DNA of 64,000 bases from a virus (lineage: Duplodnaviria > Caudoviricetes), in IMG/VR virus record IMGVR_UViG_2930666980_000001, positions 37,758 through 101,757 of that record; one strand, given 5' to 3'. Of the stretch, positions 5,089 through 54,760 are shown one piece after another. The notes beneath the pieces were generated by a model. The model did not search any database and was not told where the DNA came from. It worked only from the letters and a program-made list of their open reading frames with translations. Position numbers and translations under genes: made by a program. Each line of letters begins with the position of its first letter. Position 1 is the first letter of the stretch.

Positions 5089-5111
5089 CGCTGCTGGCTA
5101 TGGGCCGGGCG
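5089..5111 (+). promoter_or_regulatory. Conserved leader hairpin motif, copy 1
   Basis: CGCTGCTGGCTATGGGCCGGGCG in the 5' leader of the next gene. Confidence 0.7.
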
Positions 5112-5135
5112 AGAGGTGAACGCATAGGAGTCCCT

Positions 5136-5588
5136 ATGCCGCTCGACCTCCCCATGAACGACTCCCACCGCGCGTACGTCCACGCGGTCGCCGCAGCACT
5201 CAACGCGGCCGGAGTCCCCATCACTGATGTTGACTTCCTTGACGACGTGTTCGATGACGGCGACCCGCTCCGGGGTGCCCTCACCGTCATCGACGCCGCC
5301 AGGACGGCCGCCGCTTACCCCGACCGGATGGTCTGGGCGGAATGGGACGAGCGGGACGGCTGGGACCTCGCGGTCTACGACCCGAAAACGAAGCTGATCG
5401 TGTGCACGCACACCTTGTGCACCGAGGTCCTGCCGGCTCCCGCTGACGTGGCAGCGACCACCGTCGCCGTGCTCGCCGCGCACCCCTCCGCCTCGACCAA
5501 GTTGGAGCGCCCCATCCTCAGCACGTGGAACGAGGCCCTGGAAGAGGCCCTCGACTCCTACACCCGCACCTCGAAGGAGATGGGATGA
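5136..5588 (+). CDS. Hypothetical protein
   Basis: TAGGAG SD before ATG 5136; ATGA overlap with the next gene. Confidence 0.75.
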   Translation: MPLDLPMNDSHRAYVHAVAAALNAAGVPITDVDFLDDVFDDGDPLRGALTVIDAARTAAAYPDRMVWAEWDERDGWDLAVYDPKTKLIVCTHTLCTEVLPAPADVAATTVAVLAAHPSASTKLERPILSTWNEALEEALDSYTRTSKEMG

Positions 5589-5950
5589 GCCTGCCCGACT
5601 ACTTCAAGAATCAGCTGCCGGAGGGCATCCGGCAGATGGTTGACCACCCTGACTTCAACCCGTGGGGCGAGATGGTGGACGCCTACACGCACTGGGCGCA
5701 GTACACCTATCCGATGGACACAGGGGACGGCGATCCGTCGGACACGATGCTGGCCACTGTCATGGGAGTCGAGCCCATGTCGGTCGAGGTGGGCCAGTCG
5801 GTTTGCCTGTACGGAGTGTGGGTTCAGGTGGCGTCTGTGAAAACGGAGACAGAGAAGTCGGTCGACGACGGCCGTCTGATCACGTTCCACACGGTCGAGG
5901 TCCTGCTCAGCGACATCCCGCCCCTCGACGCCGTCGCACCCCCCGCCTGA
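5585..5950 (+). CDS. Hypothetical protein
   Basis: AAGGAG SD; ATGA coupling. Confidence 0.7.
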   Translation: MSLPDYFKNQLPEGIRQMVDHPDFNPWGEMVDAYTHWAQYTYPMDTGDGDPSDTMLATVMGVEPMSVEVGQSVCLYGVWVQVASVKTETEKSVDDGRLITFHTVEVLLSDIPPLDAVAPPA

Positions 5951-5962
5951 CCGCACCCCCTC

Positions 5963-6000
5963 CGAAGGGCCTGCCGGCATCTGCCCGGTGGGCCCTTTCG
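5963..6000 (+). terminator. Probable intrinsic terminator
   Basis: CGAAGGGCC..GGCCCTTTCG stem-loop after the stop codon. Confidence 0.6.
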
Positions 6001-6076
6001 CATGCCCCGGCCCGCCCGGCCGGCATGGGCTTATCCTTCTGCGCCGCAAACCGCCCGCAACCAGGGGATTTCGCTC

Positions 6077-6910
6077 ATGACCACAGCCACCTATGTCCGC
6101 ACGGAGCCGCTCCAGCTCGGCGACCTCTCCCCGTACCCGGGCAACGCGAAGAGGGGCGACGTCGGCGCGATCCTCGAATCCCTCTGCCGTAACGGCCAGT
6201 ACCGCAGCTTGATCGTCCGCGAGGCCCCGCCGGGGGAGTACACCGTCCTCGCGGGCAACCACACGCTCCAGGCCCTCGCCGCCCACGGCCCCGGCCCCTG
6301 CGGCCTCACCGTCAAGGTCGACGGCGAGGAACGCCCCTGCGCCGTCTGCCGCGGCGAGGAGTGGGAGCCGCAGGCCCGTTGCGAGATCGTCCACTGCGAC
6401 GTCGACACCGCCCGCCGCGTGAACCTCGTCGACAACCGCACCGCCGAGCTCGGCGACTGGGACGAGGAGGCACTCGCCGAGCTCCTCGGCCAGCTCGGCG
6501 ACGACATGGGCGGGACCGGCTACGACACCGGAGACCTCGAGGACCTGCTCACCGCCCTCGAGGACGCGACCGACGCCCCCGACGACGAGGACGAGGACCA
6601 GGAGCAGCCCGGCGGCCCCGGCGCCGGTGACGGCGACCGCCCCGCATCGCCCGGCCCGAACGCGGACGGCACTTCGACGCTCCCGCCCGGCCAAGTGCAG
6701 ATGGTGCTGACGTACACCGTCGCCGACCGCGACGAGGCCGCCCGGCTCATCTCCTCCGCCCGCGAGCAGGCATACGAGGCGGCCGGAGCACCGGAGGTCA
6801 TCCTCAACGCGCTCCGCGGCCTCGCCGCCATCCTCCGCCACCGCGAACACCCGGACCGCGCCGTCACCGTGGCGCAGCTCCTGCGCGCTGCCGGCATCAC
6901 CACCGAGTGA
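6077..6910 (+). CDS. ParB/Srx N-terminal domain protein (paralog 1)
   Basis: LSPYPGNAKRGDV..ESL..NGQYRSLIV..VLAGNHT.QA..DNRTAELGDWD. Confidence 0.85.
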   Translation: MTTATYVRTEPLQLGDLSPYPGNAKRGDVGAILESLCRNGQYRSLIVREAPPGEYTVLAGNHTLQALAAHGPGPCGLTVKVDGEERPCAVCRGEEWEPQARCEIVHCDVDTARRVNLVDNRTAELGDWDEEALAELLGQLGDDMGGTGYDTGDLEDLLTALEDATDAPDDEDEDQEQPGGPGAGDGDRPASPGPNADGTSTLPPGQVQMVLTYTVADRDEAARLISSAREQAYEAAGAPEVILNALRGLAAILRHREHPDRAVTVAQLLRAAGITTE

Positions 6911-6923
6911 AGGCGAGACGACC

Positions 6924-7700
6924 ATGACGACCGTCCTCCTGCCCCCGCCCACCACGACCCGCCCCGCCGTCCCACGGCCCCGTCGACCACGGCGGCCGAA
7001 CAGGCTCCTCGGCCAGAACAGCGAGATGCGCGCCGACGGCGTATGGAACTGGACGCTCCCGGCCCTCGCGACCCGCCTCCCAGACGGCCGGACCGTCAAC
7101 ACCTGCCCGGCCGCCGGAGTCTGCGCCCTCGCCTGTTACGCGAGGTCAGGGGCTTACCGCTTCCCCAACGTCGTCGCCCGCCACCAACAGAACCTGGAGT
7201 ACGTCCTCGACGACCTCCCCGGCTGGCAACGGCAGATGGCGGCCGAGCTCGCCCACCCCCGATACCGCGGCGGCTGGATCCGCGTACACGACTCAGGGGA
7301 CTTTTTCAGCGACCACTACCTCGCCGCCTGGCTCCGTCTGATGGCCTTCCGACCAGCCGTTTCCTACTACTGCTACACCAAGGAAGTCCGGCGGTTCCGC
7401 CGTCTCGTCGAGCCCGCTCCGCCCCGCAACTTCCGCTGGGTCTACAGCAAGGGCGGCAAGGAGGACCACCTCCTGCGGCCGGGCGACCGCGTCGCCGACG
7501 TCTTCACCGACGACGCCGCGATCAGGGCAGCGGGCTACCACTCCCAGGACGCCAGCGACCTCCTCGCCGTCCTCGGCCCCGCCCCCGTCGGCATCCCGGC
7601 GAACAACATCCCCCAGTACCGGAAGCGCATGGCCGGCAGGAGCTTCGGCGAATGGCAGGCAGAGCGCGACGCCAAGCGCGCCAGCAGGCACCCCGGCTGA
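6924..7700 (+). CDS. Gp88-family (radical-SAM-like Fe-S) protein
   Basis: WNWTLPA..TCPAAGVCALACYA..IRVHDSGDFFS..YCYTK. Confidence 0.8.
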   Translation: MTTVLLPPPTTTRPAVPRPRRPRRPNRLLGQNSEMRADGVWNWTLPALATRLPDGRTVNTCPAAGVCALACYARSGAYRFPNVVARHQQNLEYVLDDLPGWQRQMAAELAHPRYRGGWIRVHDSGDFFSDHYLAAWLRLMAFRPAVSYYCYTKEVRRFRRLVEPAPPRNFRWVYSKGGKEDHLLRPGDRVADVFTDDAAIRAAGYHSQDASDLLAVLGPAPVGIPANNIPQYRKRMAGRSFGEWQAERDAKRASRHPG

Positions 7701-7779
7701 CCCTCCGTCTGCTCGCCGGGAGGGCCCGACGGGCCATGCCCTTATCCTTCTGCGCCCCGCCCGCACCGAACCCGTGGAT

Positions 7780-8745
7780 ATGACCATGAGCCAGGCCACA
7801 TACGTACGAACCGCCGAAGTCCCCATCGACCGACTCCAGCTCTTCCCCGGCAACGCGAAGAAGGGCGACATCCCGGCCATCCTCGACAGCCTCCGCCGCA
7901 ACGCCCAGTACCGGTCGGTCGTCGCGCGGCAGCAGAAGAAGACCCTCACGATCCTCGCGGGCAACAACACGCTCCTTGCCCTCCGCGAGCACGGCCCCGG
8001 CGACTGCGGCGTCACCTTCACCAGCGGAGGCGAGACCCTCCCGTGCGGCCTCTGCCGCAACACCGCGGCGTACAAGCCGACCCTCCGCACGGAGGTCTAC
8101 GAGTGCGACGACGACACCGCCCGCCGCATCAACCTCGCCGACAACAAGACCAGCGACGCCGGCACGTATGACGATGCTGCGCTGGCCGAGCTGCTCTCTG
8201 GCCTCGACGGCCTCGAGGGCACGGCGTACGACACCGACGAGCTCGACGAGCTCCTGAAAGCGACCGGCGCCCTCGGCGACGCCAGCAGCGAGTTCCTCAA
8301 CTCCTTCATCGACCCGGACCCGCAGCCGACACCCACGCAGCCCGTGCCGGCAGGCGCCCCGGCCCTCAACCCGTTCTCAGCCGCTGACGTCCCGGCCGGG
8401 GCCCCGCAGACCGGCCCGGCCTCCTCGCTCCCGCAGACGGCCGCAGAAGGCGACCAGGAGCCCGCGACGGCGACCGCCCCGGCCCCGCACTCCCCGGGCG
8501 TCCACACCGGCCCGGAGGCCTACAGCGGCCCCGGCGCCCGCATGCACCCCGGTGACCCCATCGCCCTCCCCGAGACGCCGCAGATGGTCCCGCTGCAATG
8601 GGTGTTCACCCTCGATCAGCGCGACACCGTCCGCGCCGCGATCAAGGCCGAGCAGGCAGCCGGAGGCCACGACACCGCCGCCCTCGCCCTCACCGCCATC
8701 TGCCGCGCCTACGTCGACGCCGCGACCCCCAGCGAGGACCAGTGA
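7780..8745 (+). CDS. ParB/Srx N-terminal domain protein (paralog 2)
   Basis: LQLFPGNAKKGDI..NAQYRSVV..ILAGNNT..ADNKTSDAGTYD; Pro/Ala-rich linker; start could be 7786. Confidence 0.85.
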   Translation: MTMSQATYVRTAEVPIDRLQLFPGNAKKGDIPAILDSLRRNAQYRSVVARQQKKTLTILAGNNTLLALREHGPGDCGVTFTSGGETLPCGLCRNTAAYKPTLRTEVYECDDDTARRINLADNKTSDAGTYDDAALAELLSGLDGLEGTAYDTDELDELLKATGALGDASSEFLNSFIDPDPQPTPTQPVPAGAPALNPFSAADVPAGAPQTGPASSLPQTAAEGDQEPATATAPAPHSPGVHTGPEAYSGPGARMHPGDPIALPETPQMVPLQWVFTLDQRDTVRAAIKAEQAAGGHDTAALALTAICRAYVDAATPSEDQ

Positions 8746-9836
8746 CCGACCTCTCCCTGCTCCGCGGCCACCGCTGGCCCCCACACCCGACCCCCCAGGC
8801 CAACCACGCCGTCACGTCCGCCCTGTACTCCAGGGAGTGGACCGGCGGCCGGTACACCCGGGCCGCCGAGGACGCCCTCCGCGAACTGACCGGCGCCCCG
8901 CACGCCGTGGCGTTCCAGTCCTGCACCGCCGCGATCCACGCCGCGCTCCTCGCACACGGCGCCCGAGACGGCACCCCGCTCCACACCCCTGCCTTCGGCT
9001 TCGCCGGCACGCTCACCGGTGCCTCGCACATCGGGATGCGCCTGCTGTACCACGACGTCGACCCGGACACGGGCAACAGCATCGACCCGGCTGCAGCACC
9101 CGGCGCCCTCGTCCTCACCCCGGACCTGCACGGAGTGCCCCACACCCTGCCCCGCGCCGACGTCATCACCGACGCCTGCCAGGCCCTCGGCACGCTCGTC
9201 GACGGCCGGCACGTCGGAGCCGTCGGCACGCACTGCTGGTCGTTCTCGGCGACCAAGCTCGTCAGCGCCCCCGACGGCGGAGCCGTGACGACCGAAGACG
9301 AGGGCCTCGCCGACATCCTGCGGCAGCTCCGCGACTACGGAGCCGAGCCCGGGCCCGCCCGCGCCAACGCGAGGATCACCCGGCCCGGGCACAACTGGCG
9401 GCCCTCCGAACTGTCGATGGCGCTCGTCGCGGAGGAACTGACCTACCGCCTGCCCGACGCCGCCGCCCGCGCCCGCGAGGTCGGCGAGCAGGTACGCCAG
9501 ACCCTCGCCGACGTCGGCCTCTGGCACCAGCAGGTCCCTGCCGGCACCGAACCGGCCTTCCACAAGCTCCGCACCGGCCTCCCCGGCCAGAGCACGACCG
9601 CCCTCCGCGCGGCCCTCGCCGGTCTGAACGTCCCCACCCACGACTGGGGACGCCACCCGCTCCCCACGCACCCGCAGTTCTGGGAGCCCGGCCCGGAGCC
9701 GGACATCGCCGCGGCGGCCGAGCTCGCTGCCGGCACCTTCTGCCTGGGCACCGAAGCCTGCCCGCCCTGGACCTGGACGGCGGACGAGACAGACCTCGTC
9801 TGCATCACCATCGAAACGATCATGGAGTCCCTGTGA
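8742..9836 (+). CDS. DegT/DnrJ/EryC1/StrS-family PLP aminotransferase
   Basis: SCTAAIHAAL, DACQALG, SFSATK (PLP lysine), DGGAVTT, GHNWR; GTGA coupling. Confidence 0.88.
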   Translation: MTDLSLLRGHRWPPHPTPQANHAVTSALYSREWTGGRYTRAAEDALRELTGAPHAVAFQSCTAAIHAALLAHGARDGTPLHTPAFGFAGTLTGASHIGMRLLYHDVDPDTGNSIDPAAAPGALVLTPDLHGVPHTLPRADVITDACQALGTLVDGRHVGAVGTHCWSFSATKLVSAPDGGAVTTEDEGLADILRQLRDYGAEPGPARANARITRPGHNWRPSELSMALVAEELTYRLPDAAARAREVGEQVRQTLADVGLWHQQVPAGTEPAFHKLRTGLPGQSTTALRAALAGLNVPTHDWGRHPLPTHPQFWEPGPEPDIAAAAELAAGTFCLGTEACPPWTWTADETDLVCITIETIMESL

Positions 9837-10942: not shown

Positions 10943-10943
10943 C

Positions 10944-11744: not shown

Positions 11745-11775
11745 CACCACCACGTCCAGCGTGGGGAAGGACTAC

Positions 11776-13155: not shown

Positions 13156-13179
13156 ACCAGCAGGAAGGACATCGGCGAC

Positions 13180-24900: not shown

Positions 24901-25267
24901 CCTGTCCGTACCCGTGCCCGGACACTCGTCCCCGCTCCTCGCGACGGCGGTCGCCGAGCGCTCCAACCTCGCACTGGCCGCGTCCGCGTCCGCCGTCCTG
25001 ACCAGCCCGGACACCATGCCCGGATACCAGGCGGACACGTCCGGGCAGCCGGTGCCCGGACAGTCCGCGGACACGTCCGGACTCCTCGCCGCGCTCACCG
25101 CCGACCCGGCCACCCTGGACGCCCTCCTGACGCTCCTGCAGCAGCGGGAGAGCGACCAGCAGGCCGCCCGTAAGGCGGAGGTCGAGCAGCTCAGCGCAGC
25201 CGTCGCAGCCGCCGCCACCGTCCCCCCGCCGCTCGTCGCGGCAGCCCCTCAGAACGGAGACCAGTGA
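21911..25267 (+). CDS. MuF minor head protein / 2H phosphoesterase / prohead protease-scaffold fusion with internal wHTH
   Basis: MuF KQWL.R.D.RVR.AH..VNCRC; 2H HLTL and PHVC; protease ETGDGRVF..GH.GA..GVSVDLDD..GATLVAMPAY. Confidence 0.85.
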   Translation: MAVADELEDQLQRAEVDVAKEVAAVLAEVALEFAAELEAADEIVAARFSVSRIARMWTSRMPRVVRRLLRVAETAAENTADTVELPLPDGWDDLPGRYDDDRELPLGIGQYVETTEHLLRAVGDRVSDAAVRELAAGMDEGETIDQLRARLRAAFRREGAQLGTAREDRIAITEAGRAWNTATLAAAQALTGPDRPLVKQWLTRRDTRVRDAHADVNGQLRLLDEPFTVAGVEMAAPLDPTAPPALVVNCRCVLAVATADRTAAYESQTPARDAAKNRRKDPGVPDLVTAAADADHHTGAMIALVPTQEDAERLAIDGGEAADELHLTLYFLGEGADWSTDQRNELIDLVRSRAEDLEPITARAFGANHWNAGSDSPSWVWAVGDDRDRPQDSPTLETAHYAATYALEDRHGPDIPVQHSPWSPHVCAVYSGETWPLELLLEQLGPITFDRIRLAFEGEVTDIPLGTTEESMDTTDDERTAAGMQTRAWSTPDETALAFEDQETGDGRVFAPGALFWEGGPWPLQYADEMLMGHQGAELAGAIETIDRQGGRIAGSGVIYADRAAGADAIQFLDEKAPLGVSVDLDDVDIEFVDKTMSPEDAEMYGLVASLSSLSVLRLEDGALMLTASSAPVWTASGTAMARNQHSVQFITGPGGRISREALRTAFAGTTFLTAAAGDRDDPDSGVVVHSESAGDLLVRITRARMRGATLVAMPAYSNARIVLDPVDDEGQEETAAAGVQTAAGVSDTHRRVVAYVRASPIAVGAREVGKALGLRTDTVRGHLSRAVAAGTLVRLAPGQFVGASTMPEGAPLETLAEDDTGELTELEASAWTAMRDTDPMPAGWFQEPTDEELPPGSGGVHYSGGRIFGWVAQAGEPHAGYPGRQLTIESLGDIDTSHFLRARFQLDDGSMVKAGAFTMNAPHHRDGAECESAACQFDDTRTVAGIVTVGMNARGMWFSGAASPWLSEWDRRVFSACQPSYHMKQGAGSRWQLRAVLSVPVPGHSSPLLATAVAERSNLALAASASAVLTSPDTMPGYQADTSGQPVPGQSADTSGLLAALTADPATLDALLTLLQQRESDQQAARKAEVEQLSAAVAAAATVPPPLVAAAPQNGDQ
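25005..25085. repeat. CGGACA/TGTCCG site cluster 3 (intragenic)
   Basis: Two GCGGACACGTCCGG copies plus CCCGGACA copies inside the 3' end of the fusion gene. Confidence 0.7.
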
Positions 25268-25440
25268 TGCCCTGCTCCTGCCAGTCCAAGCGCCAGCAGT
25301 ACGAGGTGGTGACCGCGGCCGGGAAGGTCGTGTTCACCTCCGCCAACAAGGCGACCGCCGACACCGTCGCCAAGCGCTACGAGAACAGCGAGGTCCGGGA
25401 GAAGGCCAAGACTGGAGCAGCGGCCAAGGCCGCCACCTGA
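25267..25440 (+). CDS. Small basic protein (MPCSCQ...)
   Basis: TGATG coupling; CxC N-terminus; typical small gene before cluster-B-like capsid genes. Confidence 0.7.
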   Translation: MPCSCQSKRQQYEVVTAAGKVVFTSANKATADTVAKRYENSEVREKAKTGAAAKAAT

Positions 25441-25481: not shown

Positions 25482-25547
25482 TATGCTGGTCGGCGTCGCT
25501 GCTGGTGTGCTAGGCCGGGCGACGTCGCCGCTGGTGCTAGGCCGGGC
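25482..25547 (+). promoter_or_regulatory. -10 box plus two tandem leader hairpin motifs (copies 2 and 3)
   Basis: TATGCT (25482-25487), then CGTCGCTGCTGGTGTGCTAGGCCGGGCGACG and CGCCGCTGGTGCTAGGCCGGGC. Confidence 0.8.
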
Positions 25548-25577: not shown

Positions 25578-27236
25578 ATGGCCGACTTCGAACTCCCCGA
25601 GAACATCGCCGCCCTGAACGACGACGAGCTCACCGAGCTCCTCGACGGCGCGACCAAAGAGTTCAACAGCAAGAGCACCAGCAGCGTCGTCACCCCCAAG
25701 GACATCGAGCAGCTCCGCGCGCTCGCCAAGGGCGTCGAGGACATCCGCACCGAGCAGGCCGCCCGTGTCGAGGCCGCCACCCAGGCCGCTGCCGAGATCG
25801 ACGCCCTCGCCGCCCAGGTCCGTGGCAACACCGCCGACGACCCGGCGGCCGAGCCGACCGGCGAAGAGACCACCGCCGCGGCGGAGACCGCCCCGGCCGC
25901 CGAGCCTGCCGAGCCCGCTCCCGTTCAGGAGCCGGAGCAGCAGGCGACCGCCTCCGCGATGGTCGCGACCCGCCCGGCCCTGAACCTCTCCGGTATCCGG
26001 CGCCGTCAGCCGAACGTCCTCCCGGCGGCCCCGGCCCCGGGCACGACGATCACGGCGGCCGTCGACGTCCCCGGCTACGCCCCCGGCTCTCCGCTCGACT
26101 TCGGCGACATCACTGCCGGCATCATCAGCCGCGCCAACGCCCTCAAGACCGCGGGGGGCGGGGTCGGCCAGGTGATCAGCTACCGGCACCCGTACCCGGA
26201 AGACATGATCGTCACCGACTCCTCGTCGGCCCCGGAGGGGACCACGGTCGCGCTCCAGGCCTCGAGCCAGCGGCGTCTCCCGGAGAAGGACCTCGTGGCG
26301 TCCGGCGGCTGGTGTGCCCCGTCCGAGACGATCTACGAGCTCACCGACACGGCGTGCCCGGACATGCTCTGGGACGCCCCGGAGATCCAGCTCGCCCGCG
26401 GTGGCCTGCGCTACTACAAGCCGCTGTCCCTGGACGTCGCCGCCATGTCGTGGGTGCACACGGAGGCCGACGACATCAGCGGCGCCGAAAAGCCGTGCTT
26501 CAAGGTGCCCTGCCCGGCCCCGGTCGAGGTCCGCTGTGACGCCGTCGGTGTCTGCCTCGAGGCCGGCATCCTGACGCAGCGCCATTTCCCGGAGCTCGTC
26601 GCCTGGTACCTCCGCAACGCCATGGTCGCCCACGAGATGAGGATCAGGCAGGTCCTGTTCCAGCAGGCCCTGAACCTGGCCACCCCGGTCGTCCTGCCGG
26701 CGTCGATGGGTGCCCTGTCCGCCGTGTACGCGGCCGTTGCCCTCCAGGCCGCCGACATGATCGAGCGCCACTCGCTGTGTGAGACGACCGCCCTTGAGGT
26801 CGTGTTCCCCTGGTGGGCAAGGAACCTCTTCCTCACCGACCTCGCGCGCCGCAACGGCGTCACCGTCGACCAGGTCACCGACGCCAACATCCAGGCCCTG
26901 TTCAGCCCCCTCGGCGTCCGCATCCAGTGGGCGCGCGGCCTCAACCCGGCCGTCCCGACGGACATCGGCGCCGCCACCCCGGCCCTCGACTGGCCCGCCA
27001 CCATGAACTTCCTGATCTACCCGGCCGGTGGCCTCCAGATCGGCCGCGGCGAAGAGGTCAACCTGGGAGTTGTTCATGATTCTACGAAGTTCGTGACCAA
27101 CGACTACACGGCCCTCTTCGCCGAAGAATGCGTGGCACTCGTCGATAGGTCCATCGACACGCGCGTGGTGACCGTGCCTGTCTGCCCGACCGGCGAGACC
27201 GGCGGTCAGACCGTCCTCGCCTGCCCCATCGCCTGA
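25578..27236 (+). CDS. Major capsid (hexamer) protein with N-terminal scaffold-like region
   Basis: LVASGGWCAPSET.Y, RGGL.Y, KPC..VPC, FPELV, DST...NDY..LF.EE. Confidence 0.9.
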   Translation: MADFELPENIAALNDDELTELLDGATKEFNSKSTSSVVTPKDIEQLRALAKGVEDIRTEQAARVEAATQAAAEIDALAAQVRGNTADDPAAEPTGEETTAAAETAPAAEPAEPAPVQEPEQQATASAMVATRPALNLSGIRRRQPNVLPAAPAPGTTITAAVDVPGYAPGSPLDFGDITAGIISRANALKTAGGGVGQVISYRHPYPEDMIVTDSSSAPEGTTVALQASSQRRLPEKDLVASGGWCAPSETIYELTDTACPDMLWDAPEIQLARGGLRYYKPLSLDVAAMSWVHTEADDISGAEKPCFKVPCPAPVEVRCDAVGVCLEAGILTQRHFPELVAWYLRNAMVAHEMRIRQVLFQQALNLATPVVLPASMGALSAVYAAVALQAADMIERHSLCETTALEVVFPWWARNLFLTDLARRNGVTVDQVTDANIQALFSPLGVRIQWARGLNPAVPTDIGAATPALDWPATMNFLIYPAGGLQIGRGEEVNLGVVHDSTKFVTNDYTALFAEECVALVDRSIDTRVVTVPVCPTGETGGQTVLACPIA

Positions 27237-27256: not shown

Positions 27257-27295
27257 GCGGACGGGCCCGGTGACCTGAACACCGGGCCCGTCCGT
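27257..27295. terminator. Stem-loop between the convergent capsid and HNH genes
   Basis: CGGACGGGCCCGGTG / CACCGGGCCCGTCCG inverted repeat. Confidence 0.75.
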
Positions 27296-35900: not shown

Positions 35901-36369
35901 CCGCACCGAGGCGCCCGCGCAGGTCTACACGCTCACCCCGGTCGCCTCCCGGACGGAGGTGTCGTTCACGAAGCGGTTCACGCAGGAGTGCGACGGCACG
36001 ACGAGCGTGACGTGGCTGGACGCGGACGGCGTCGAGATCGAGGAGCCGGAAGGCGACCTGACGTTCTGCGGGGCGACCGACCCGACGGGCCCGGATGCAG
36101 GGGTCGTCAGCACCGGCGTGCGGGCTGTGACCGGCACGGCGCCCCAGGACCTCGTCGCCGAGTTCGCGGGCCTCCAGAGCATCAGCCTGGCCGTCCTCGC
36201 CGGCACGGTCGAGACGACCATGACCGACGGCACCGCGGTGACCATCCCGGCCGGGGTCACCCTCACGTGGTCCGTGGCCAAGGACACCGATACCGCCCTC
36301 GCCGCGGCCTCCTTCGCCGGGGCCGACGCCTCCGCCTCCTACCTCCTGAACTGGACGTACCTGTCATGA
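32905..36369 (+). CDS. Large Cys-rich modular repeat protein B
   Basis: Same modules as protein A, including a long paralogous block; GTGA coupling. Confidence 0.8.
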   Translation: MSGCCGQGPVIVSGAAATPRVDVETVLLCDVLPDGTVAGVALTEGIYDTISGARVGTRTVDPATGDPYTPTGTLGPCSPDGCNATTAALVLCDTATDGTATTFVRTTTYDCEGAILGTLDRDLDGAAYTPAGTVGVCPAVPDCESPTTPTATIGLCLPDGTPIAVTVVRDCEGVVTSEGWINLTTGAFSAGAPPVGTVACGDSRSVQVSGTFCDVDGAGEVVGLVLIEYSYAADGAIDSVRLVDAATGDTYVPVGEITTCPAGTAQPEQDIVQLCDVAGDGTSTPFVRDYRRDELGAISGHSDYLLDGTAYVPAGTVGICQEPPCRSSTTLSLCDTSPVDVGDQVTATVTDPTPYFQTGDGVTKLVVLADPQPFFDGSPITVDGPPGGETTADPTHRYTAAVLALPEGTCPPCGDWPDTMTLTVAATVTNNGPAVGQGVTGRFTLLNGTTVLDSNQITATPVGGTGAFSVTADVSRADLLAGTVVIEMDLETKHQGLKAWTAQDFAVTLEFEQTGCGTAFLRTIRRDCATGELVDVLDTDYDGQPYTPVGEVASCATRTPGSCGQADCPTTSVQTTRLCDLDPTVEADEEGRRCAVPFLRHLAYDCDGALLGFHDTGLDGTTPYTPVQVVDCQCTSGAGLTSTIEVPWQVVSVIEDPAGVARQDFIYTVSPENDPSRVGTIRVHVSRAAGAPCGAYNINALTFSNTSAYTLTLDEVAQEMSYLRVDLVDFDTFEPVGINSGMPAPSRLGGTAGWNSAHTRIVPAENDGTGYLYWDNPPAQVGWTVFNTGGGVSCSALSFQGMTVEPGGCCGGSSDATGCGDCDTIALCDVPADGGGTVSFLRHICRDCAGAVTAVTDTALDGTTPYTPTGTVRDCGAVGDCPTSYSTECWSAASAQASYDNTRGNCGGIDPGSMGTCAGNWRISSWIIDGAEQITGAPAQFVANGCGGAAGQFHAEWATALGVLDPSSTWEPAYNGSCLFFIRTSSMDPDRVYGSMTVYRTEAPAQVYTLTPVASRTEVSFTKRFTQECDGTTSVTWLDADGVEIEEPEGDLTFCGATDPTGPDAGVVSTGVRAVTGTAPQDLVAEFAGLQSISLAVLAGTVETTMTDGTAVTIPAGVTLTWSVAKDTDTALAAASFAGADASASYLLNWTYLS

Positions 36370-37046
36370 GTGGAACGAACGCCGGAATCGGCACCGTGAC
36401 CGCCGCTGCGGCGGTCACGGTCGACCCCGCGCCCTGTAACGCCCTCACGGAGACCTCTGCCGGTCTCCTCGTCCCCTCTACGGCCCTTGCCGGTGTCGCC
36501 GGGGCCGGTGCGCCGGTCGGCTCCGGGCGGTCCGTGAGCGTTGACGTGCTCGCCCCGGCCGGTGCGGACTGTCCCGCCGAGTGGGAGATCGGGGCGCGGC
36601 TCGCACCGCCCTTCGGGGAGGTGATCCTCGACCAGTTCGTGAACCTCGTGAGCACCGCCAGCGGGGCGTGGATCAACAGCGGCATGGCGGTGGACCTCCC
36701 CGCGGCCGGTGTGTATGAGGTCAGCGCCACGCTGCACACCGTCATCGCTACCAACCCGTCGAGCGGTGCGTTCAACATCGCGATCGTCGGACGGCTCTGG
36801 AACGTGACGGGCAACGCGGCCATCCCGGACGGCCAGTACACCGTCCAGCAGACCGCCAGCAACAGCACCCCGACGACCCTGACCTCCGATGCGGACGTGT
36901 GCACGTTCCACAAGTTCGTCACGACGACCGGGCCGATGAGGATCCGACTGGAGGTCGCCCGGGTCAACACGTCCGGCACTCCCGTGGCGACTACCGGCCT
37001 CCAGACCCTGACCAGCCGCCTCGCCTTCAAGAAGATCAGCGACTAG
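36366..37046 (+). CDS. Putative virion protein with C-terminal beta-sandwich (BclA-C/C1q-like)
   Basis: ATGA coupling; LPAAGVYEVSA motif; Thr/Ala/Gly-rich. Confidence 0.7.
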   Translation: MSGTNAGIGTVTAAAAVTVDPAPCNALTETSAGLLVPSTALAGVAGAGAPVGSGRSVSVDVLAPAGADCPAEWEIGARLAPPFGEVILDQFVNLVSTASGAWINSGMAVDLPAAGVYEVSATLHTVIATNPSSGAFNIAIVGRLWNVTGNAAIPDGQYTVQQTASNSTPTTLTSDADVCTFHKFVTTTGPMRIRLEVARVNTSGTPVATTGLQTLTSRLAFKKISD

Positions 37047-37917: not shown

Positions 37918-37953
37918 CTAGACTCAAAGACGCCGCTGGTTGTGGGCCGGGCG
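37918..37953 (+). promoter_or_regulatory. -10 box plus leader hairpin motif (copy 4)
   Basis: TAGACT then CGCCGCTGGTTGTGGGCCGGGCG (37931-37953). Confidence 0.8.
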
Positions 37954-37977: not shown

Positions 37978-40257
37978 ATGGCTGCATGCTGCAGCGTCCC
38001 GCGCTGCGCCTGCCGCGTCACCGCTGGGCCGGGCGTCACCGTCGACGGCAACGGGTCCGCGGCGGCCCCGTACGTCGTCTCTGCGAACGGCGCCACGACG
38101 GCCCTCGGAGTCACGGACACCTCGACCGTCGACCTGACCCTCACCGGGGACGGGAGTGCCGGCGCACCGTACGAGGTCACCGCCGCGGTGATCCTCGACC
38201 CGGCGCCTCCGGGGGGCGGCGACCAGCTCCTCCAGTCCGGGCCCGATGGCCTGTTCCTGGAGTGCGAGCAGGTCCGTGGCTGCCTGACCGCCGGGGACGG
38301 CATCGTGTACGACCCGGACAGCGGGGAGATCAGCGCGACGCCGGAGCCGACTGCGCTCGGCGTCACTGACTCGACGTCGGTAGACCTGACGCTGACCGGC
38401 ACGGGAAGCGCGGCCGACCCCTTCGACGTGACCGCCGCGGTGATCCTCGACCCCACCCCGCCCGGCGGCGGCGACCAGCTCATCCAGTCCGGGCCCGGCG
38501 GCCTGTTCCTCGAATGCGAGCAGGTCCGCGGCTGCATCTCGGCCGGAGACGGCGCAGCGTATGACCCGGCGACGGGGGTCATCGAGGCGCGGCCGTCGAC
38601 GGATGCGGACAACACCCTGACCTTCGGTACCGACGGCGGCCTCCTGGTCCCCCCGGGCAGTACCACGGCCCCGACGGTCGTCGAGGCGGCCGACTCTACG
38701 ACCGTCGACACGGAGGTCACAGGGGCCGGTACAGCGGCGTCCCCGTACGTCGTCACGAGCTCGGTGATCCTCGACCCGGCGCCGCCCGGCGGTGGCGACC
38801 AGCTGCTGCAGGCTGGTCCTGACGGTCTGTTCCTGGAGTGCGAGCAGGTCCGCGAGTGCTTCTCTGCCGGGGACGGTGCGGCGTACGACCCGGCAACGGG
38901 GGTTATCACTGCGCGCGTCTCGGCCGATGCCGGCAACTCGACGGTCTTCGGCAGCGACGGCGGGATCTTCACACCGGCTGGAGGTGGGGGCGAGCCGACC
39001 GCGCTGGGCGTGACCGACTCGACCACCCTCGACCTCTCCGTGTCCGGCACTGGCACGGCGGCCGACCCGTACGACATTACCGGCGCCGTCATCCTGGACC
39101 CGGCACCGCCGGGCGGTGGCGACCAGCTGCTGCAGGCGGGTCCTGACGGTCTGTTCCTGGAGTGCGAGCAGGTCCGCGAGTGCTTCTCTGCCGGGGACGG
39201 TGCGGCGTACGACCCGGCAACGGGGGTGATCGAGGCCCGGCCGTCGACGGACGCGGGCAACACCCTCACCTTCGGTACCGACGGCGGCCTCCTCGTCCCA
39301 CCCGGGAGCGGCACCGCAGACCCGACGGTCGTCGAGGGCGGCGACTCGACGACCGTCGACACAGAGGTGACCGGTGCCGGCACGGCCGCCTCTCCGTACA
39401 TCGTCACGAGCTCCGTGATCCTCGACCCGGCCCCTCCGGGCGGCGGCACTCAGCTACTGCAGGCGGGGCCTGACGGTCTGTTCCTCGAGTGCGAGCAGGT
39501 TCGGGGGTGCCTGGTCGCCGGGGACGGGGCGGCGTACGACCCGGCGGCGGGCGAGGTCGAGGCGCGCCTGTCGGCTGACGCGGCGAACACGGTCGTCTTC
39601 GGCACGGACGGCGGTCTGTTCGTGCCGGCACCGGCGGCCCCGCTGGTCGGGTGCGGCCTGACCGGCGACGGCTCCGCGGGCGCACCGCTGACCGCCAACC
39701 CGATCGCCGGGCAGGAGGCATGGGCCGACACCTGGACCTGCGTCGACGAGACGCATTCGACGCTGAAGTGCGACCCGGACACGGGCGCCCTGTGGACGCC
39801 ACCGGAGCACACGTCAGCGGCCGTCACGATCCAGCAGAACCACCCGATGGGCACGCCGAGCTTCACGGCGACCGGTGGGTACTCCATTGTCAGTACCTCG
39901 GTGTGGTCCGAGGGCACTGTTACCGCTGACTCCATCACCGCCTGCCGGGGCATGGCTTTCAGCGCGACGTTCACCGGGCACCTTGAAGCGAGCTGGACTG
40001 CCGGCAGCGTCTTCGACATCGGCTACGCAGTGCAGATCAACGGCGGCGCCCTCGGCGTGCGGGTCATGCACAGCAAGCTCCAGGCGGGCGGCATCGCCGG
40101 GCGGGAGCGGTGGACGTTCTCGACGGCTCAGGCCGCCATGCTCGCCGCGCACACCGGCTACGCGGTCCGCGTCTACCCGGCGATCCAGGTCACGGCTGGC
40201 ACCGTCACGCTCCAGCAGTGGATCACCGACACCCACCTGATCGTCACGACCCGCTGA
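37978..40257 (+). CDS. Fibre-like repeat protein
   Basis: Five copies of VILDP.PPGGG.QL.Q.GP.GLFLECEQVR.C..AGDG..YDP; AAGGAG SD. Confidence 0.8.
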   Translation: MAACCSVPRCACRVTAGPGVTVDGNGSAAAPYVVSANGATTALGVTDTSTVDLTLTGDGSAGAPYEVTAAVILDPAPPGGGDQLLQSGPDGLFLECEQVRGCLTAGDGIVYDPDSGEISATPEPTALGVTDSTSVDLTLTGTGSAADPFDVTAAVILDPTPPGGGDQLIQSGPGGLFLECEQVRGCISAGDGAAYDPATGVIEARPSTDADNTLTFGTDGGLLVPPGSTTAPTVVEAADSTTVDTEVTGAGTAASPYVVTSSVILDPAPPGGGDQLLQAGPDGLFLECEQVRECFSAGDGAAYDPATGVITARVSADAGNSTVFGSDGGIFTPAGGGGEPTALGVTDSTTLDLSVSGTGTAADPYDITGAVILDPAPPGGGDQLLQAGPDGLFLECEQVRECFSAGDGAAYDPATGVIEARPSTDAGNTLTFGTDGGLLVPPGSGTADPTVVEGGDSTTVDTEVTGAGTAASPYIVTSSVILDPAPPGGGTQLLQAGPDGLFLECEQVRGCLVAGDGAAYDPAAGEVEARLSADAANTVVFGTDGGLFVPAPAAPLVGCGLTGDGSAGAPLTANPIAGQEAWADTWTCVDETHSTLKCDPDTGALWTPPEHTSAAVTIQQNHPMGTPSFTATGGYSIVSTSVWSEGTVTADSITACRGMAFSATFTGHLEASWTAGSVFDIGYAVQINGGALGVRVMHSKLQAGGIAGRERWTFSTAQAAMLAAHTGYAVRVYPAIQVTAGTVTLQQWITDTHLIVTTR

Positions 40258-40596: not shown

Positions 40597-40640
40597 TATG
40601 CTGGTCGCGTTGCCGCCGCTGGTTCTGGGCCGGGCCGACC
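40597..40640 (+). promoter_or_regulatory. -10 box plus leader hairpin motif (copy 5)
   Basis: TATGCT then CGCCGCTGGTTCTGGGCCGGGC (40614-40635), enclosed by GGTCG/CGACC. Confidence 0.8.
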
Positions 40641-45389: not shown

Positions 45390-45427
45390 TACCCTTCCCC
45401 ACCACGCCGCTGGTTGTGGGCCGGGCG
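45390..45427 (+). promoter_or_regulatory. -10 box plus leader hairpin motif (copy 6)
   Basis: TACCCT then CGCCGCTGGTTGTGGGCCGGGCG (45405-45427). Confidence 0.8.
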
Positions 45428-46005: not shown

Positions 46006-46217
46006 TCAATGCGGCTGAGGCCGCCATCGAGCAGGGCGCGGAGGACGACGCCGAGCGCAAGCGGATCCGGACGCGGCTCTACGCACCGCCCAAGGGGAGC
46101 CGCCCGCAGCGGCGTGTCCGGCCGCCCGGTATGGGCTTCGACGCCGCGGGCGCTCAGGCCCTCGCCCAGCAGCTCGAGGCGGAGGACGAACGGCTGACCG
46201 GACGGCGCTCCGGATAG
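45858..46217 (+). CDS. Tail assembly chaperone C-terminal extension (-1 frame)
   Basis: Overlapping -1 frame Y..LRL..W..WDG.L...GV.P..WPLRR..N; 5' boundary uncertain. Confidence 0.6.
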   Translation: MGRRAVQRRQAPSYVVLRLCESIAEGWDAWDGSLALQGVNPHDWPLRRMINAAEAAIEQGAEDDAERKRIRTRLYAPPKGSRPQRRVRPPGMGFDAAGAQALAQQLEAEDERLTGRRSG

Positions 46218-46273
46218 TCTGAATGCACGGCCGGGCCCTGCTCGTCCGTATGCCGCTGGTTGTGGGCCGGGCA
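46215..46273 (+). promoter_or_regulatory. -10 box plus leader hairpin motif (copy 7)
   Basis: TAGTCT then TGCCGCTGGTTGTGGGCCGGGCA (46251-46273). Confidence 0.75.
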
Positions 46274-46297
46274 ACAACACGTTCGCGTGAGGTTGCC

Positions 46298-51151: not shown

Positions 51152-51155
51152 CGGC

Positions 51156-52397
51156 GTGATTCCCGACTATGCCGATCTTGGATGTACCGAGATCATCAAC
51201 TCCGCGCGGGCGTCGGTCTATGCGGAGCTGTATTGCCTGCTGACGGCCTGTGAGCCGTGCCCCGGGCTCCCGGAGGCTATCGCCGACGAGCCGTACGTGG
51301 ACCCGGTGTCAGACCCTGCGCCGTGGTACGACCCGGCGGTTCCGGAGTCGGAGTATTTCCTCGGCGTGATGGGCCTCGATGTCGTGGGGTTCTCGCAGTC
51401 GACGCGGGGCCGGACTCCGGTGCAGCTGGTTGGCGACGGGGCGGCGTTGGGGATCGCGCGCCGGTCGCATCGAGAGATCACGTACACGGTGCTGCTCCTG
51501 GTCCGCGAGGAGTGCGCGCTGCCGTACGCGCTGGAGTGGCTGTCGGCCGCGCTCCAGGGCGCCCCGTGCGAGGGGTCGTGTGTCGGCGACGAGCTCGGCG
51601 TGTTCTCCTGCTGCCCGACCGGGGACGGGACGCGGGAGCTGCGGCACCTCTTCGGCGTCGGGCTGCTCGAGGGCCCGACGGTGACGGCGACCCGGTACAT
51701 GGATGAGGGGATCATCGCGGAAGCGACGTTCACCCTGGCCGCGGCCGTGCCGTGGATCTACCGGGAGCCGCTCGAGACGCTCACGGACTGGATCACGCTC
51801 CGGGCCGGCACGCTGCTGACCTTCGACCCTGACGAGGTGTACGGGGCGTGCCTCGAGGCGACGCCGTGCCTCGACGACCCGCTCTGTCCGCCGCCGCCCC
51901 TGCCCGTGCGGGCGCCGGTGCCCGTGGACGCCTGCTATCCGACGGGGTCCGCGCAGTTCTACCGGTCGGTGGTGTCGCTGCCTCCGGTCGCCCAGCCGGA
52001 ATGGCTCGAGGCCGTGCCGGTCTTCGAGCTCGAGACCGGAGGGACGGCGCTGCGCAGGTTGATCGTCCGGTTCTGGGCGAACCCCTTGGGCGGGGACTGC
52101 ATGGACGTCGCGGACCCGTGTGCGGCCTGTACGGACATTCAGATCCCGTACCTGCCGGCAGGATCCAAGCTCACGGTTGACGGGCGCACGCAGCGCGCTG
52201 AGGTCGACTGCCCGGCCGGGCCGCTGGGCTCGGCGACCAGCTCGCCGACCCTCTACGGCCCGCTGGGCCGGAGCTTCGAGTGGCCGGTGTTCAGCTGCCC
52301 GACGGGCCTGTGTATCGAGATCCTCTCGACGTCCGCGACGACCGCGGCCGATGCCCGGGCCAGGGTGTTCCTGGTGCCCCGATCGGATGTGGGCTGA
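51156..52397 (+). CDS. Minor tail (distal tail-like) protein
   Basis: Follows TMP; EIINSAR..Y, DPAPWYDP..PES..F.G. Confidence 0.8.
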   Translation: MIPDYADLGCTEIINSARASVYAELYCLLTACEPCPGLPEAIADEPYVDPVSDPAPWYDPAVPESEYFLGVMGLDVVGFSQSTRGRTPVQLVGDGAALGIARRSHREITYTVLLLVREECALPYALEWLSAALQGAPCEGSCVGDELGVFSCCPTGDGTRELRHLFGVGLLEGPTVTATRYMDEGIIAEATFTLAAAVPWIYREPLETLTDWITLRAGTLLTFDPDEVYGACLEATPCLDDPLCPPPPLPVRAPVPVDACYPTGSAQFYRSVVSLPPVAQPEWLEAVPVFELETGGTALRRLIVRFWANPLGGDCMDVADPCAACTDIQIPYLPAGSKLTVDGRTQRAEVDCPAGPLGSATSSPTLYGPLGRSFEWPVFSCPTGLCIEILSTSATTAADARARVFLVPRSDVG

Positions 52398-52398
52398 C

Positions 52399-53553
52399 GT
52401 GGCCGAGCTGGGGTGTCCGCAGGAGTACAGGGCCGTCATCCACTGGCGGGGCGGGAGCAGGCCGTTCACCTCGCCCGGGGTGTCGGCGCTGACCGGGGTG
52501 CAGTGGAACCGGACGGTCAACGACACCTCCGAGGGCGTCATCACGATCGCCAAGGGCGAGGCTGGGGCGGCCTGCTGCGGGCAGCTCGGACAGATCGAGC
52601 CGTACGCCCATGAGCTGTCGATCTACCGGGACAGCGAGCTCGTGTGGCAGGGGCCGGTCGTCCGCACGGTGGAGAACCGGACGACGTTCACCGTCGAGGC
52701 GAAGGACGTCACCGAGTGGCTGGCCCGGACGGTCAACACGACGTTGTTGCGCTACGTGTCGACGAATGCGGCCGACCCGATGCACCGCGGTCCGGTCCAG
52801 GAGATCGCGCAGACGATCGTCCGCCTGAACCTGAACGGCGCCCTGTTCGCGTCCGGCCCGGACTGGCCGCGGATCCTGCCCTTCATCGTCCGCGACGACG
52901 ACCCGGTAGTCACGTCGTTCGAGAAGGACGGGAGCGACGACGCGAGCGCATGGATCGTGCCGATCCTCCAGATCTTCGATGACGAGCTGGTGCCCCGTGG
53001 GCTCGAGTACACGACCGTGGGCCGGGCCCTCGTCCTGGGACGGCCGCAGACGACGAGCGACCCGGCACAGGCCCGTCTGACGCTCGACCACATCGCGGGC
53101 GATGTGCAGATCGTCCGGGACGGGGCGGCCGGGTCCACGCTCGTCTGGGTCACCAACCAGACCCAGCAGGAAATCGCGGGCACACAGTTCGGGGTGTCGG
53201 GTGTGGTCGGCCCGGTGTACGGGCGCCTGGACACGCTCGTGACGACGCAGGCGGAGGGCCTGACGGCGTACGACCTTTGGCAGCTCGCGAGGGCTAGCTA
53301 CAACGGCCGCAACCCTGTGCCGACCAGCCTCAGCATCCCTCAGGGGTCGAGCCTCGCGGCGTCGGCCCCGGTGTCCATGCGGCAGCTCGTGCCGGGGGTG
53401 CGTCTCGACGTGTCCGCGACCGGCATGTGCAGCTCCGTGACGCAGCCCTATCGCCTCTCTGACGTCGACGTCGAATGGACAGACGCCAGCGGCGAGGAGG
53501 TCGGCGTGAGCCTCATCCCAATCGGCGAACCGTACACAGGAGCACCACCGTGA
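52399..53553 (+). CDS. Minor tail (baseplate hub-like) protein
   Basis: V.W.R...DTS, HELSIYRD..VWQGPV, LVPGV. Confidence 0.8.
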   Translation: MAELGCPQEYRAVIHWRGGSRPFTSPGVSALTGVQWNRTVNDTSEGVITIAKGEAGAACCGQLGQIEPYAHELSIYRDSELVWQGPVVRTVENRTTFTVEAKDVTEWLARTVNTTLLRYVSTNAADPMHRGPVQEIAQTIVRLNLNGALFASGPDWPRILPFIVRDDDPVVTSFEKDGSDDASAWIVPILQIFDDELVPRGLEYTTVGRALVLGRPQTTSDPAQARLTLDHIAGDVQIVRDGAAGSTLVWVTNQTQQEIAGTQFGVSGVVGPVYGRLDTLVTTQAEGLTAYDLWQLARASYNGRNPVPTSLSIPQGSSLAASAPVSMRQLVPGVRLDVSATGMCSSVTQPYRLSDVDVEWTDASGEEVGVSLIPIGEPYTGAPP

Positions 53554-53813
53554 CAGCTCTCCCCGGGCAGCGCTCTGCCCAGCGTCCTTGGCGTGCGATG
53601 ACGTCCTCTCAGCGGGCGCTCGGCCGTGCCGCGCAGGCCTCTGCCGGCGGGCTCGGTAGCAGCGGTATCGCGTTCATCGACGGCCAGACGTACGAGGTCG
53701 ACCTGACGGCGCCGCCTGAGGAGCAGGCGCGCCCGGTAAGGCCGCCGTGCCAGTGCGCCGAGGACTCGTGTCCCTGCGCGGACGACGACGGCACCAGCGA
53801 GAAGGAGAGTTAG
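53550..53813 (+). CDS. Small hypothetical tail-region protein
   Basis: AGGAG SD; GTGA coupling; Cys-rich C-terminus. Confidence 0.55.
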   Translation: MTALPGQRSAQRPWRAMTSSQRALGRAAQASAGGLGSSGIAFIDGQTYEVDLTAPPEEQARPVRPPCQCAEDSCPCADDDGTSEKES

Positions 53814-53815
53814 AC

Positions 53816-54676
53816 ATGGCGCGGTGTGGATGTCAGGGAGGCTGCTCCTGCTCGGTGCAGGGCAGCGGCCTGGTGCAGGTCTCGGGTAACGGGAGCTCAC
53901 AGGCGCCGTTCACGGTGGGCCTGGTCTACGACGGGCAGACCGGTTGTGACGCGATCATCGGGTGCGTCTGTGACCACTCCGGGGCCGGACTGACGTGCGC
54001 GAACGGCATGGTCCAGGTCATGCCCTCCGGGGACGCCGGGAACGTGCTGACGATCGGGAGCGACGGCGGCGTGATGGTGCCGACAGCCGGAGCGTCTGCC
54101 GGCATCCTCGCCGGGCAGGCGGTCACGATCACCGGGAGCCAGGCGGCCGGGTACACGATCGGTGCGAAGATCAGCGCTGACGCGGAGAACTCGATCGGCC
54201 TGGGTTCGGATGGCGGTCTGTATGTGGCGGGGCCGCGGTTCGCGTACGGCAACCTGGCGTCGAGGGCGGTCACGCTGACGATCACGGATAACTGGATGGT
54301 CCCCACCATCACGGGGCAGTCCGGTGGGTTCTCGGTACTGCCTGTGTCCGGTGGCATTGTCCGGGTGCGGTTGCCCGACGCCGGGACCTGGTTCCTTCAG
54401 ATGCAGACCAGATGGGACACGTCCGCGGGGTACACCATCGCGAGCGGGGCGCTCATCTACTGCGGCATCTCGTCGGCTGCGCGCGGCATCGTCCACGCTG
54501 AATCGGTCACCCGGCCCTCGTCGGTTACGGGCATGCACGCCTCCACGATGGAGGACTTCAACGACGTCGCGACGCCGACGATCTCGTTTCGAGTCCAGGC
54601 GAGCAGCACCCACGCCGCGCAACCGACCGTGACCGGCTGGTGGTCGGCGCACCGTGTCGGGCCGAGCGTGCAGTGA
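53816..54676 (+). CDS. Minor tail / fibre protein
   Basis: MARCGCQGGCSC N-terminus and S.DAGN....GSDGG repeats shared with 37978-40257. Confidence 0.75.
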   Translation: MARCGCQGGCSCSVQGSGLVQVSGNGSSQAPFTVGLVYDGQTGCDAIIGCVCDHSGAGLTCANGMVQVMPSGDAGNVLTIGSDGGVMVPTAGASAGILAGQAVTITGSQAAGYTIGAKISADAENSIGLGSDGGLYVAGPRFAYGNLASRAVTLTITDNWMVPTITGQSGGFSVLPVSGGIVRVRLPDAGTWFLQMQTRWDTSAGYTIASGALIYCGISSAARGIVHAESVTRPSSVTGMHASTMEDFNDVATPTISFRVQASSTHAAQPTVTGWWSAHRVGPSVQ

Positions 54677-54725
54677 CGGCTGCCCTCCTTGCCGCCGCCC
54701 CCGGGGGCGAGGAGGGCGAGCGCTG

Positions 54726-54760
54726 TACAGTGTCGCGCCGCTGCTGGTTCTGGGCCGGGC
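54726..54760 (+). promoter_or_regulatory. -10 box plus leader hairpin motif (copy 8), upstream of the lysis genes
   Basis: TACAGT then CGCTGCTGGTTCTGGGCCGGGC (54739-54760). Confidence 0.8.

Follow-up and report, generated by a model that had tools for sequence, protein, structure and literature searches.

The question raised by the final 64 kb of a provirus record of 101,757 bp and 71% G+C (IMG/VR IMGVR_UViG_2930666980_000001), a stretch of 64,000 nucleotides (nt) that we call the window, is what a short hairpin that recurs in front of late genes does there, and whether it does so as RNA or as DNA. The window contains eight copies of this 21-nt hairpin motif, all on the + strand, which serve seven virion, lysis or accessory gene units of a Streptomyces-type prophage and share the core consensus GCYGCTGGTTNTGGGCCGGGC. 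We propose that the motif forms the conserved element of a late-gene expression unit that is portable and acts as RNA, that is, a positive-acting tag in the 5' leaders of late mRNAs that would be read by a conserved partner, and we give this reading a probability of about 0.55.

The pattern GCTGGY-N3-9-GGCCGGGC matches the window eight times, in 8/8 cases on the + strand, against a shuffle mean of 0.10, and none of 100 shuffles reaches eight matches. With its filters switched off, a covariance model made from copies across the family recovers exactly these eight (25–42 bits, E ≤ 3e-4), the next-best match in the window having 15.6 bits and an E value of 0.11, and the other 37.7 kb of the provirus record, its first part, contain no copy. 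Every copy in the window is intergenic with a Shine–Dalgarno sequence (SD) downstream, and the start codon lies 25–30 nt past the motif end in all seven gene units. The initial annotation of this DNA had reported eight copies, all intergenic, on the + strand and upstream of an SD, and had suggested a covariance model on relatives as a check; pattern, shuffles and model bear it out on these points. It was also right about the genes behind the copies, namely a capsid gene (two copies), a fibre-like gene, the major tail gene, a gene in the chaperone position, the tape measure gene, a lysis gene and an accessory gene (DUF6292).

The motif is shared by a large group of related phages. The nearest named one is Streptomyces phage TurkishDelight, with 78% DNA identity across the capsid region; it has four exact copies, all on the forward strand, and is the only carrier among 50,697 isolated phage records. 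The 21-mer was found in at least 116 stretches of IMG/VR and in at least 120 stretches of a set with one genome per prokaryote species, in total at least 230 stretches of related actinomycete phages and prophages. Among the matches listed the hosts are mostly Streptomyces, and also Kitasatospora, Embleya, Nonomuraea, Planomonospora, Planotetraspora, Sphaerisporangium and Micromonospora, the hosts being read from record titles and placed in orders from general taxonomic knowledge. One exact copy lies on a 2183-bp contig (L196) whose label is that of a Hyphomicrobiales metagenome bin, a source remote from the actinomycete hosts that could reflect a binning error. A relaxed pattern applied to 21 related virus records finds 142 copies on the gene strand versus 4 on the opposite strand, a backward control pattern giving 2; the opposite-strand copies are in three relatives (G005:C1:81926, G012:C1:49753, G017:C1:85790 and 85833). 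An antisense-RNA partner was considered and set aside, as this genome has no reverse-strand copy of the motif. Actinoplanes phage phiAsp2 was likewise discarded as a distant carrier: it has a related tail gene, but its genes are translationally coupled and leave no such spacers. Three whole host genomes contain 5, 7 and 8 exact copies, each set within one 14–25 kb stretch and on a single strand, and their 2–4 one-mismatch matches elsewhere are at the control level, which indicates that the host itself does not use the motif. Host mimicry was rejected on the same ground, no copy lying outside the prophage in these three genomes. The comparison with Rfam proposed by the initial annotation yielded no family, either with the whole window at the gathering score or with four 3-kb loci around five of the copies at E ≤ 1. 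A literature search found neither the motif strings nor the phage name TurkishDelight in any paper. This hairpin tag is apparently undescribed, a cis-acting leader hairpin regulon outside any named family.

What do the carriers have in common? Comparison of the 125 open reading frames (ORFs) of this genome with nine fully fetched carriers, by tblastn, shows that only the genes from portal to tail are common to all; small arginine-rich proteins could escape such a search. Four of the nine carriers have no early-region gene in common with this genome, and a fifth has only a WhiB-like gene, yet the hairpin is identical in all. The motif therefore travels with the structural module and not with any early regulator, and this linkage implies that its reader would be either the host machinery or a protein encoded in the module.

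The base pairing was analysed on copies chosen by their -10 box and the remaining motif, not by the bases under test. When the outer three bases on each side are left free, all 139 matches can form three pairs and none has a C.A mismatch; the triplets are GCC/GGC (99), GCT/GGC (26), GCT/AGC (5), GTC/GAC (4) and five other paired types. An A is present in the outer bases of 12 of these 139 matches and is always opposite U. The inner part varies far less: with the inner 5' side left free, GCTGGT is found in 130 of 135 matches (three have an inserted A at the bulge), and of 266 copies 257 show no change at all in the inner 15 nt, the rest being seven with an inserted A and two with a C to T change that gives G.U. 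This near-invariance points to a sequence-specific reader.

To describe the fold we aligned 148 of the 220 distinct 21-nt rows, comprising all 19 outer-helix variants and 129 taken at random from the other 201, and left out eight rows of other lengths. In a revised register, in which Y2 pairs with R18 and the helix contains two single-base bulges (G3 and U5) and no mismatch, 92.9% of the cells are paired, versus 21–55% when the 3' partners are slid by one to three columns. Pair 1–19 is CG in 135 rows, UA in 8 and UG in 5, and pair 2–18 is CG in 107, UG in 34 and UA in 7; neither is unpaired in any row. The U-A variants are found before several different gene families. The initial annotation had drawn the fold with a 2-nt YG bulge and a C4–G18 pair, a register that is off by one and produces seven C.A mismatches in the 148 rows, and had taken the U-A pair just outside the core at 46251 for a conserved pair, although that pair forms in only 57 of 148 rows (77 of 186 contexts in another count). 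Its view of a cis-acting RNA element on the sense strand agrees with the compensatory and G.U changes: G.U pairs on the sense strand would be A.C on the complement, so that the fold belongs to the sense strand, in other words to RNA. Sequence comparison thus supports the idea that the motif acts as RNA, in cis, in the 5' leaders of late genes.

The surroundings of the hairpin were compared in 202 distinct contexts, from IMG/VR and TurkishDelight loci and the window, of which the 186 with flanks less than 70% alike were kept. Outside the core, only an A/T-rich patch upstream and a G-rich patch 16–20 nt downstream are conserved. A typical unit consists of a TAnnCT -10 box, 6–10 nt, the hairpin, 27±3 nt and the start codon. 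TANNNT hexamers number 168 in the upstream 80 nt versus 6 in the downstream 80 nt; they start 15–19 nt before GCTGG in 116 of the 186 contexts, leaving 6–10 nt before the first hairpin base, and 20–23 nt before it in 18 more, and they are never nearer. The fifth base of the hexamer is C in 125 of 134. No -35 signal is seen in the boxed contexts, which agrees with the initial annotation. TANNNT is the -10 motif at 80.4% of the mapped transcription starts of S. coelicolor, where the -35 is less conserved (PMC4895711, in extract). Assuming a start at the seventh base after the box, for 116 of the 134 copies with a box the RNA would begin 0–4 nt upstream of the hairpin, and the hard minimum of 6 nt between box and hairpin fits a need for the entire hairpin to be transcribed. 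At the other end of the leader, an SD and start codon were located for 237 of the 266 copies, and 230 of these 237 are 17–35 nt after the motif, with a mode of 27. The hexamer could have been an RNase E site in place of a -10 box; this was rejected in view of the site preference of that enzyme, as the invariant T, A and T fit the -10 signature and U follows the hexamer in only 22 of 134 cases. Full sigma-70 promoters and canonical U-tract terminators do not occur above chance. Six promoters of another class were noted (458–520 in the window; 12378, 27911, 30880, 31380 and 35017 in G000 coordinates), with TTGACT in five and TTGCGT in one, an 18-nt spacer, and a -10 that is TAnnGT in five and TAATCT in one. 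They carry a different small hairpin, CGGGCG-N4-GCCCG, about 12–15 nt after the -10, so this phage puts an early hairpin in two promoter classes.

The eight copies in the window follow this arrangement with some variation. The initial annotation had placed a TANNNT box before every copy; such a box is present 7–12 nt before the hairpin in five cases out of eight (those it listed at 25494, 37931, 40614, 45405 and 54739), and is lacking at this distance from the second of the tandem copies (25526) and from the copies at 46251 and 5089, whose boxes lie 31 and 34 nt upstream. Copy 1 (5090–5110, with a CTATG loop variant) precedes the DUF6292 gene, which starts at 5136, and the sole box near it is TACGGT at 5050–5055. 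Tandem copies precede the capsid gene here and in several relatives. In the window the -10-like hexamer TATGCT (25482–25487) lies 10 nt before the first of the pair, copy 2 (25494–25524, 23-nt core 25498–25520), which has a 7-nt loop region and an outer stem extended by CGUC/GACG; copy 3 (25527–25547) follows, and the major capsid gene (phrog_777) starts at 25578. Copy 4 (37932–37952), 7 nt after TAGACT (37919–37924), stands before the gene of a 759-aa (amino-acid) Cys-rich fibre-like protein, starting at 37978, for which no family match was obtained. This protein, at its N-terminus (37978–38025), and many motif-led fibre-like proteins of relatives (L174, L129, L197) have a Cys-rich beginning (MAACC..., MARCGC..., MANCCG...) that resembles the CxC start of a small head-module protein discussed below. 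Copy 5 (40615–40635), 12 nt after TATGCT (40597–40602), precedes the major tail protein gene (phrog_792, start 40663), and copy 6 (45406–45426), 10 nt after TACCCT (45390–45395), precedes the gene in the tail-assembly-chaperone position (phrog_12617, start 45454).

At the tape measure gene (start 46298), TAGTCT (46215–46220) is 31 nt before copy 7 (46252–46272) and a different small hairpin lies between them (about 46228–46248). The same layout, with an extra hairpin of variable sequence between the -10 box and the conserved hairpin, is seen at tape-measure genes of relatives (46221–46251 in the window; L010, L023, L083, L090, L099, L101). Copy 8 (54740–54760), 8 nt after TACAGT (54726–54731), precedes a 92-aa ORF (54790–55068, phrog_2293) that leads an Amidase_2 endolysin frame. 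A long ORF (54654–55988), of which Amidase_2 forms residues 179–318, overlaps this copy; its real start probably lies after the 92-aa ORF, so that the motif would head a two-gene lysis unit. Long, perfect, G+C-rich terminator-like hairpins without a U-tract are found at 27257–27295, directly after the capsid gene, at 36393–36421, after an 1188-aa gene ending at 36369, and at 54683–54718, directly before the box of the lysis unit (54726). As these hairpins are at unit edges, several units look like discrete transcription units.

How stable is the hairpin, and what lies between it and the start codon? Alone, the six single-copy hairpins have predicted energies of -7.3 to -10.5 kcal/mol, and in equilibrium folds with 30–60 nt of extra sequence the hairpin is mostly displaced. 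In these predictions natural leaders pair with the hairpin 5' arm less than composition-matched shuffles do (0.18 versus 0.51, p 8e-23) and give the hairpin a higher probability (0.149 versus 0.07, p 1e-7), which suggests that natural leaders spare the hairpin. A built-in competitor helix, as in a designed switch, was rejected, the 3' arm pairing with downstream sequence at 0.46 versus 0.52 in shuffled leaders. Of 224 distinct leaders, 127 place the SD in the 3' arm of a predicted local helix, and a helix over the SD is predicted in six of the seven window leaders; in the leader of copy 4 the SD AGGAG is paired with CUCCU in the predicted second helix. Across ten full genomes the SD is so placed in 22 of 31 motif genes, compared with 240 of the 637 remaining genes whose SD is good (Fisher p 5e-4), a comparison in which strict filters make the motif set small and many control genes have coding sequence upstream. 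SD accessibility is 0.29 in natural leaders versus 0.37 with a shuffled linker (p 3e-5), and forcing the hairpin lifts it to 0.37 (p 3e-9; 181 of 217 leaders with a good SD). The earlier idea of an unstructured C-rich linker was dropped given these tests. The predicted second helix over the ribosome site is weak, and its enrichment seems real but modest.

These observations can be assembled into the following scheme. Host RNA polymerase would start at a -10-only promoter (TAnnCT, no -35), and the transcript would begin 0–4 nt before the near-invariant 21-nt hairpin, predicted to consist of an outer helix of 3 bp, then a bulged G, one C-G pair and a bulged U, and an inner GGUU/GGCC helix capped by a small loop. 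The start codon would come 27±3 nt further on, with the SD often in the weak second helix. A partner common to all carriers, either host machinery or a head–tail-module protein, might read the hairpin sequence-specifically, and the hairpin might then boost expression of the downstream gene, through a ribosome site that stays usable, a protected mRNA 5' end, or both. The positive sign is suggested by the tandem copies before the capsid gene and by the position of the motif before genes of abundant virion proteins, and a sequence-specific reader by the combination of an exact inner part with a weak fold. The constant spacing of 27±3 nt between motif and start codon, together with an SD that is often occluded, favours an action on translation or mRNA fate over antitermination.

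By analogy with known systems, a protein-bound translational activator of the kind of phage Mu Com/mom would best match the combination of invariant inner bases, two bulges, a weak fold, a fixed start distance and an often hidden SD. In the mom mRNA a helix masks the translation start signals, and a short hairpin of specific sequence stands immediately upstream of it; binding of a small phage protein to this hairpin turns translation on (PMC6483171, in extract). Our leaders resemble it in having a conserved hairpin followed by a predicted helix with the SD in its 3' arm, in the proportion given above. They differ in that Mu has one target whereas most of the records searched have 4–9 or more units, in that no Com-like CCCC zinc finger is present among the proteins scanned here, in that the second helix is a weak one that about 40% of leaders lack, and in that the hairpin, with a promoter of its own in front, is at the predicted 5' end; any binding and activation would be carried over from Mu as an analogy only. 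The near-terminal position of the hairpin also fits 5'-end protection. The closest repeats described in actinobacteriophages are the start-associated sequences (SAS) and extended SAS (ESAS) of cluster K, a repeated asymmetric motif in one orientation at a fixed distance before many start codons, absent from the host genome and associated with different gene families, for which a role in translation initiation has been proposed (extract of PMC3203893). The SAS is a 13-mer, GGGATAGGAGCCC, that contains the SD and lies 3–7 bp from the start of non-structural genes only, and the ESAS is a 17-bp inverted repeat (same extract, PMC3203893). Orientation, fixed start distance and varied gene families are shared with our motif. 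Its sequence, in contrast, is unrelated, 27 nt and a separate SD stand between it and the start, the genes behind it are mainly those for virion and lysis proteins, and covariation supports its fold.

Several observations weigh against the proposal that the motif is an RNA tag of late mRNAs. The covariation concerns two base pairs, and the 148 rows are related sequences in an alignment enriched for variants. The hairpin folds no better than shuffles (z from -0.6 to +1.6 over seven folds), is the best equilibrium fold of the whole leader in only 10 of 217 cases, lies on average 6 kcal/mol above the best fold, and has a predicted pair probability of 0.02–0.04 when 60 nt of downstream sequence are added. 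The leader segments fold no better than mononucleotide shuffles either (mean z -0.3), and SD accessibility rises by only 0.07 when the hairpin is forced. The transcript starts are read from the -10 box alone, and 52 of the 186 contexts have no box at the usual distance. Some of these are chance matches in coding DNA and some are genuine copies, behind terminator-like hairpins or second in tandem, and the latter mean that a 5'-terminal position is not obligatory. Finally, no reader was found, and no RNA-binding family or domain is present among the module proteins scanned.

Could simpler or better-known functions account for the motif? A plain 5'-terminal stabiliser would only block decay that depends on the 5' end (RNase J, RNase E, pyrophosphohydrolase) and would need no specific reader. 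Such decay enzymes need unpaired 5' nucleotides, at least two for BsRppH, and 5' stem-loop stabilisers are known (PMC3997798, in extract); a hairpin within 0–4 nt of the predicted start in most boxed copies is in line with this, as is the early hairpin of other sequence in the other promoter class of the phage. However, stabilisers of the ompA type work through shape and do not need a given sequence, yet here the inner 15 nt are almost always exact across distant hosts; the hairpin is weak, it is retained at tape-measure genes even under another hairpin at the 5' end, and 5' protection does not demand a fixed distance to the start codon. Stabilisation alone seems to us an unlikely explanation. 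The initial annotation had thought of a nut/boxB- or put-like element. The lambda nut/boxB site with N and the HK022 put RNA are small promoter-proximal phage RNA hairpins that act in cis on downstream genes, the put RNA being made of two adjacent stem-loops of about 65–70 nt in all. A nascent hairpin of this type, alone or with a protein, would make polymerase resistant to late-region terminators. The motif does open transcription units; the capsid gene and the gene ending at 36369 are each followed by a strong terminator-like hairpin, with genes beyond it that have no motif of their own; a weak hairpin that needs to form only co-transcriptionally is compatible with its poor equilibrium stability; and if the hairpin bound the conserved polymerase, its invariance across host orders would be accounted for. 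Nevertheless, the likeness to nut or put fails on anatomy: each unit has one 21-nt hairpin, far smaller than a two-stem put RNA, no boxA-like flank is seen in the 186 contexts, and no N-like or other early regulator is shared by the nine carriers compared. There are many copies instead of two, tied to start codons, with tandem pairs mainly before capsid genes, and antitermination does not demand 27±3 nt to the start codon. Moreover, several units appear to end at their own terminator-like hairpin before a new box and motif, and U-tract terminators are not above chance. We regard antitermination as decidedly improbable.

The remaining alternative is a site read in DNA: an element of a late promoter, a site (operator or stoperator) bound by a phage regulator, or a promoter of hairpin form used by a phage polymerase. 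In cluster A mycobacteriophages the repressor of the phage itself binds DNA sites called stoperators (a name given in PMC3203893), which, like the motif, are short, asymmetric and intergenic, run along the direction of transcription and number many per genome. High conservation, single orientation, intergenic position beside a -10 box and the symmetry of the outer three bases in duplex DNA would all suit such a site. However, A18 occurs only with T2 and A19 only with T1, never with C opposite A, which is unexpected for independently read half-sites, and only the sense strand tolerates G.U; the variation thus obeys the rules of RNA pairing. Both the loop length (4–7 nt) and the spacing from the box (6–10 nt) vary. 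The immunity and early modules of the carriers are unrelated, so that no common DNA-binding regulator would be found there, and for the same reason an operator for the phage's own repressor, like an early-region partner of the nut type, is unlikely. No match to Sigma70_r2 was found in the genome, and a search for a T7-type RNA polymerase was also negative, a result of little weight as its control gave no match either. A DNA-level function is accordingly very improbable. An RNase III site was also rejected, the helix being too short for that enzyme.

If the motif is an RNA tag, which protein might read it? Among the conserved early and module proteins, Pfam and PHROGs scans identified WhiB, a small HTH_58 protein, DUF1360 and PHROGs without a name, but no RNA-binding family. 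Immediately upstream of the capsid promoter (25264–25440 in the window) lies the gene of a 55-aa protein whose N-terminus has an invariant M-x-C-x-C. This protein is found in 22 of 23 motif-bearing records, sometimes twice, the exception having a single motif copy, and among isolated phages in TurkishDelight only. Its only two invariant Cys are those of the CxC, and its model (predicted local distance difference test score, pLDDT, 71) has a beta-beta-alpha-beta fold; neither a Pfam or PHROG match for the protein nor a PDB match for the model at E ≤ 0.001 was obtained. It is a candidate only, since every module gene co-occurs with the motif. A more specific and speculative version of our proposal is that a self-contained late regulon moves with the head–tail module and has the hairpin as its address tag, in which case a module-encoded reader, possibly the 55-aa CxC protein, would bind the nascent hairpin and switch on translation of virion genes, or the tag would act directly on RNA polymerase; we offer it tentatively and think it rather doubtful.

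If the motif is a positive-acting leader tag, phages of Streptomyces and related actinomycetes would share a compact and widespread control element for late genes, and a mosaic structural module would be seen to keep its own expression logic while early regions swap. The hairpin would then also be a defined RNA bait for its reader, whether host or phage, and its small size suits it as a candidate expression part for high-GC actinomycetes. Because the isolated phage TurkishDelight carries the motif, the system is open to bench study. If the hairpin proves to be the address tag of a self-contained regulon, the structural module would carry its own expression control across unrelated early regions and several actinomycete host genera.

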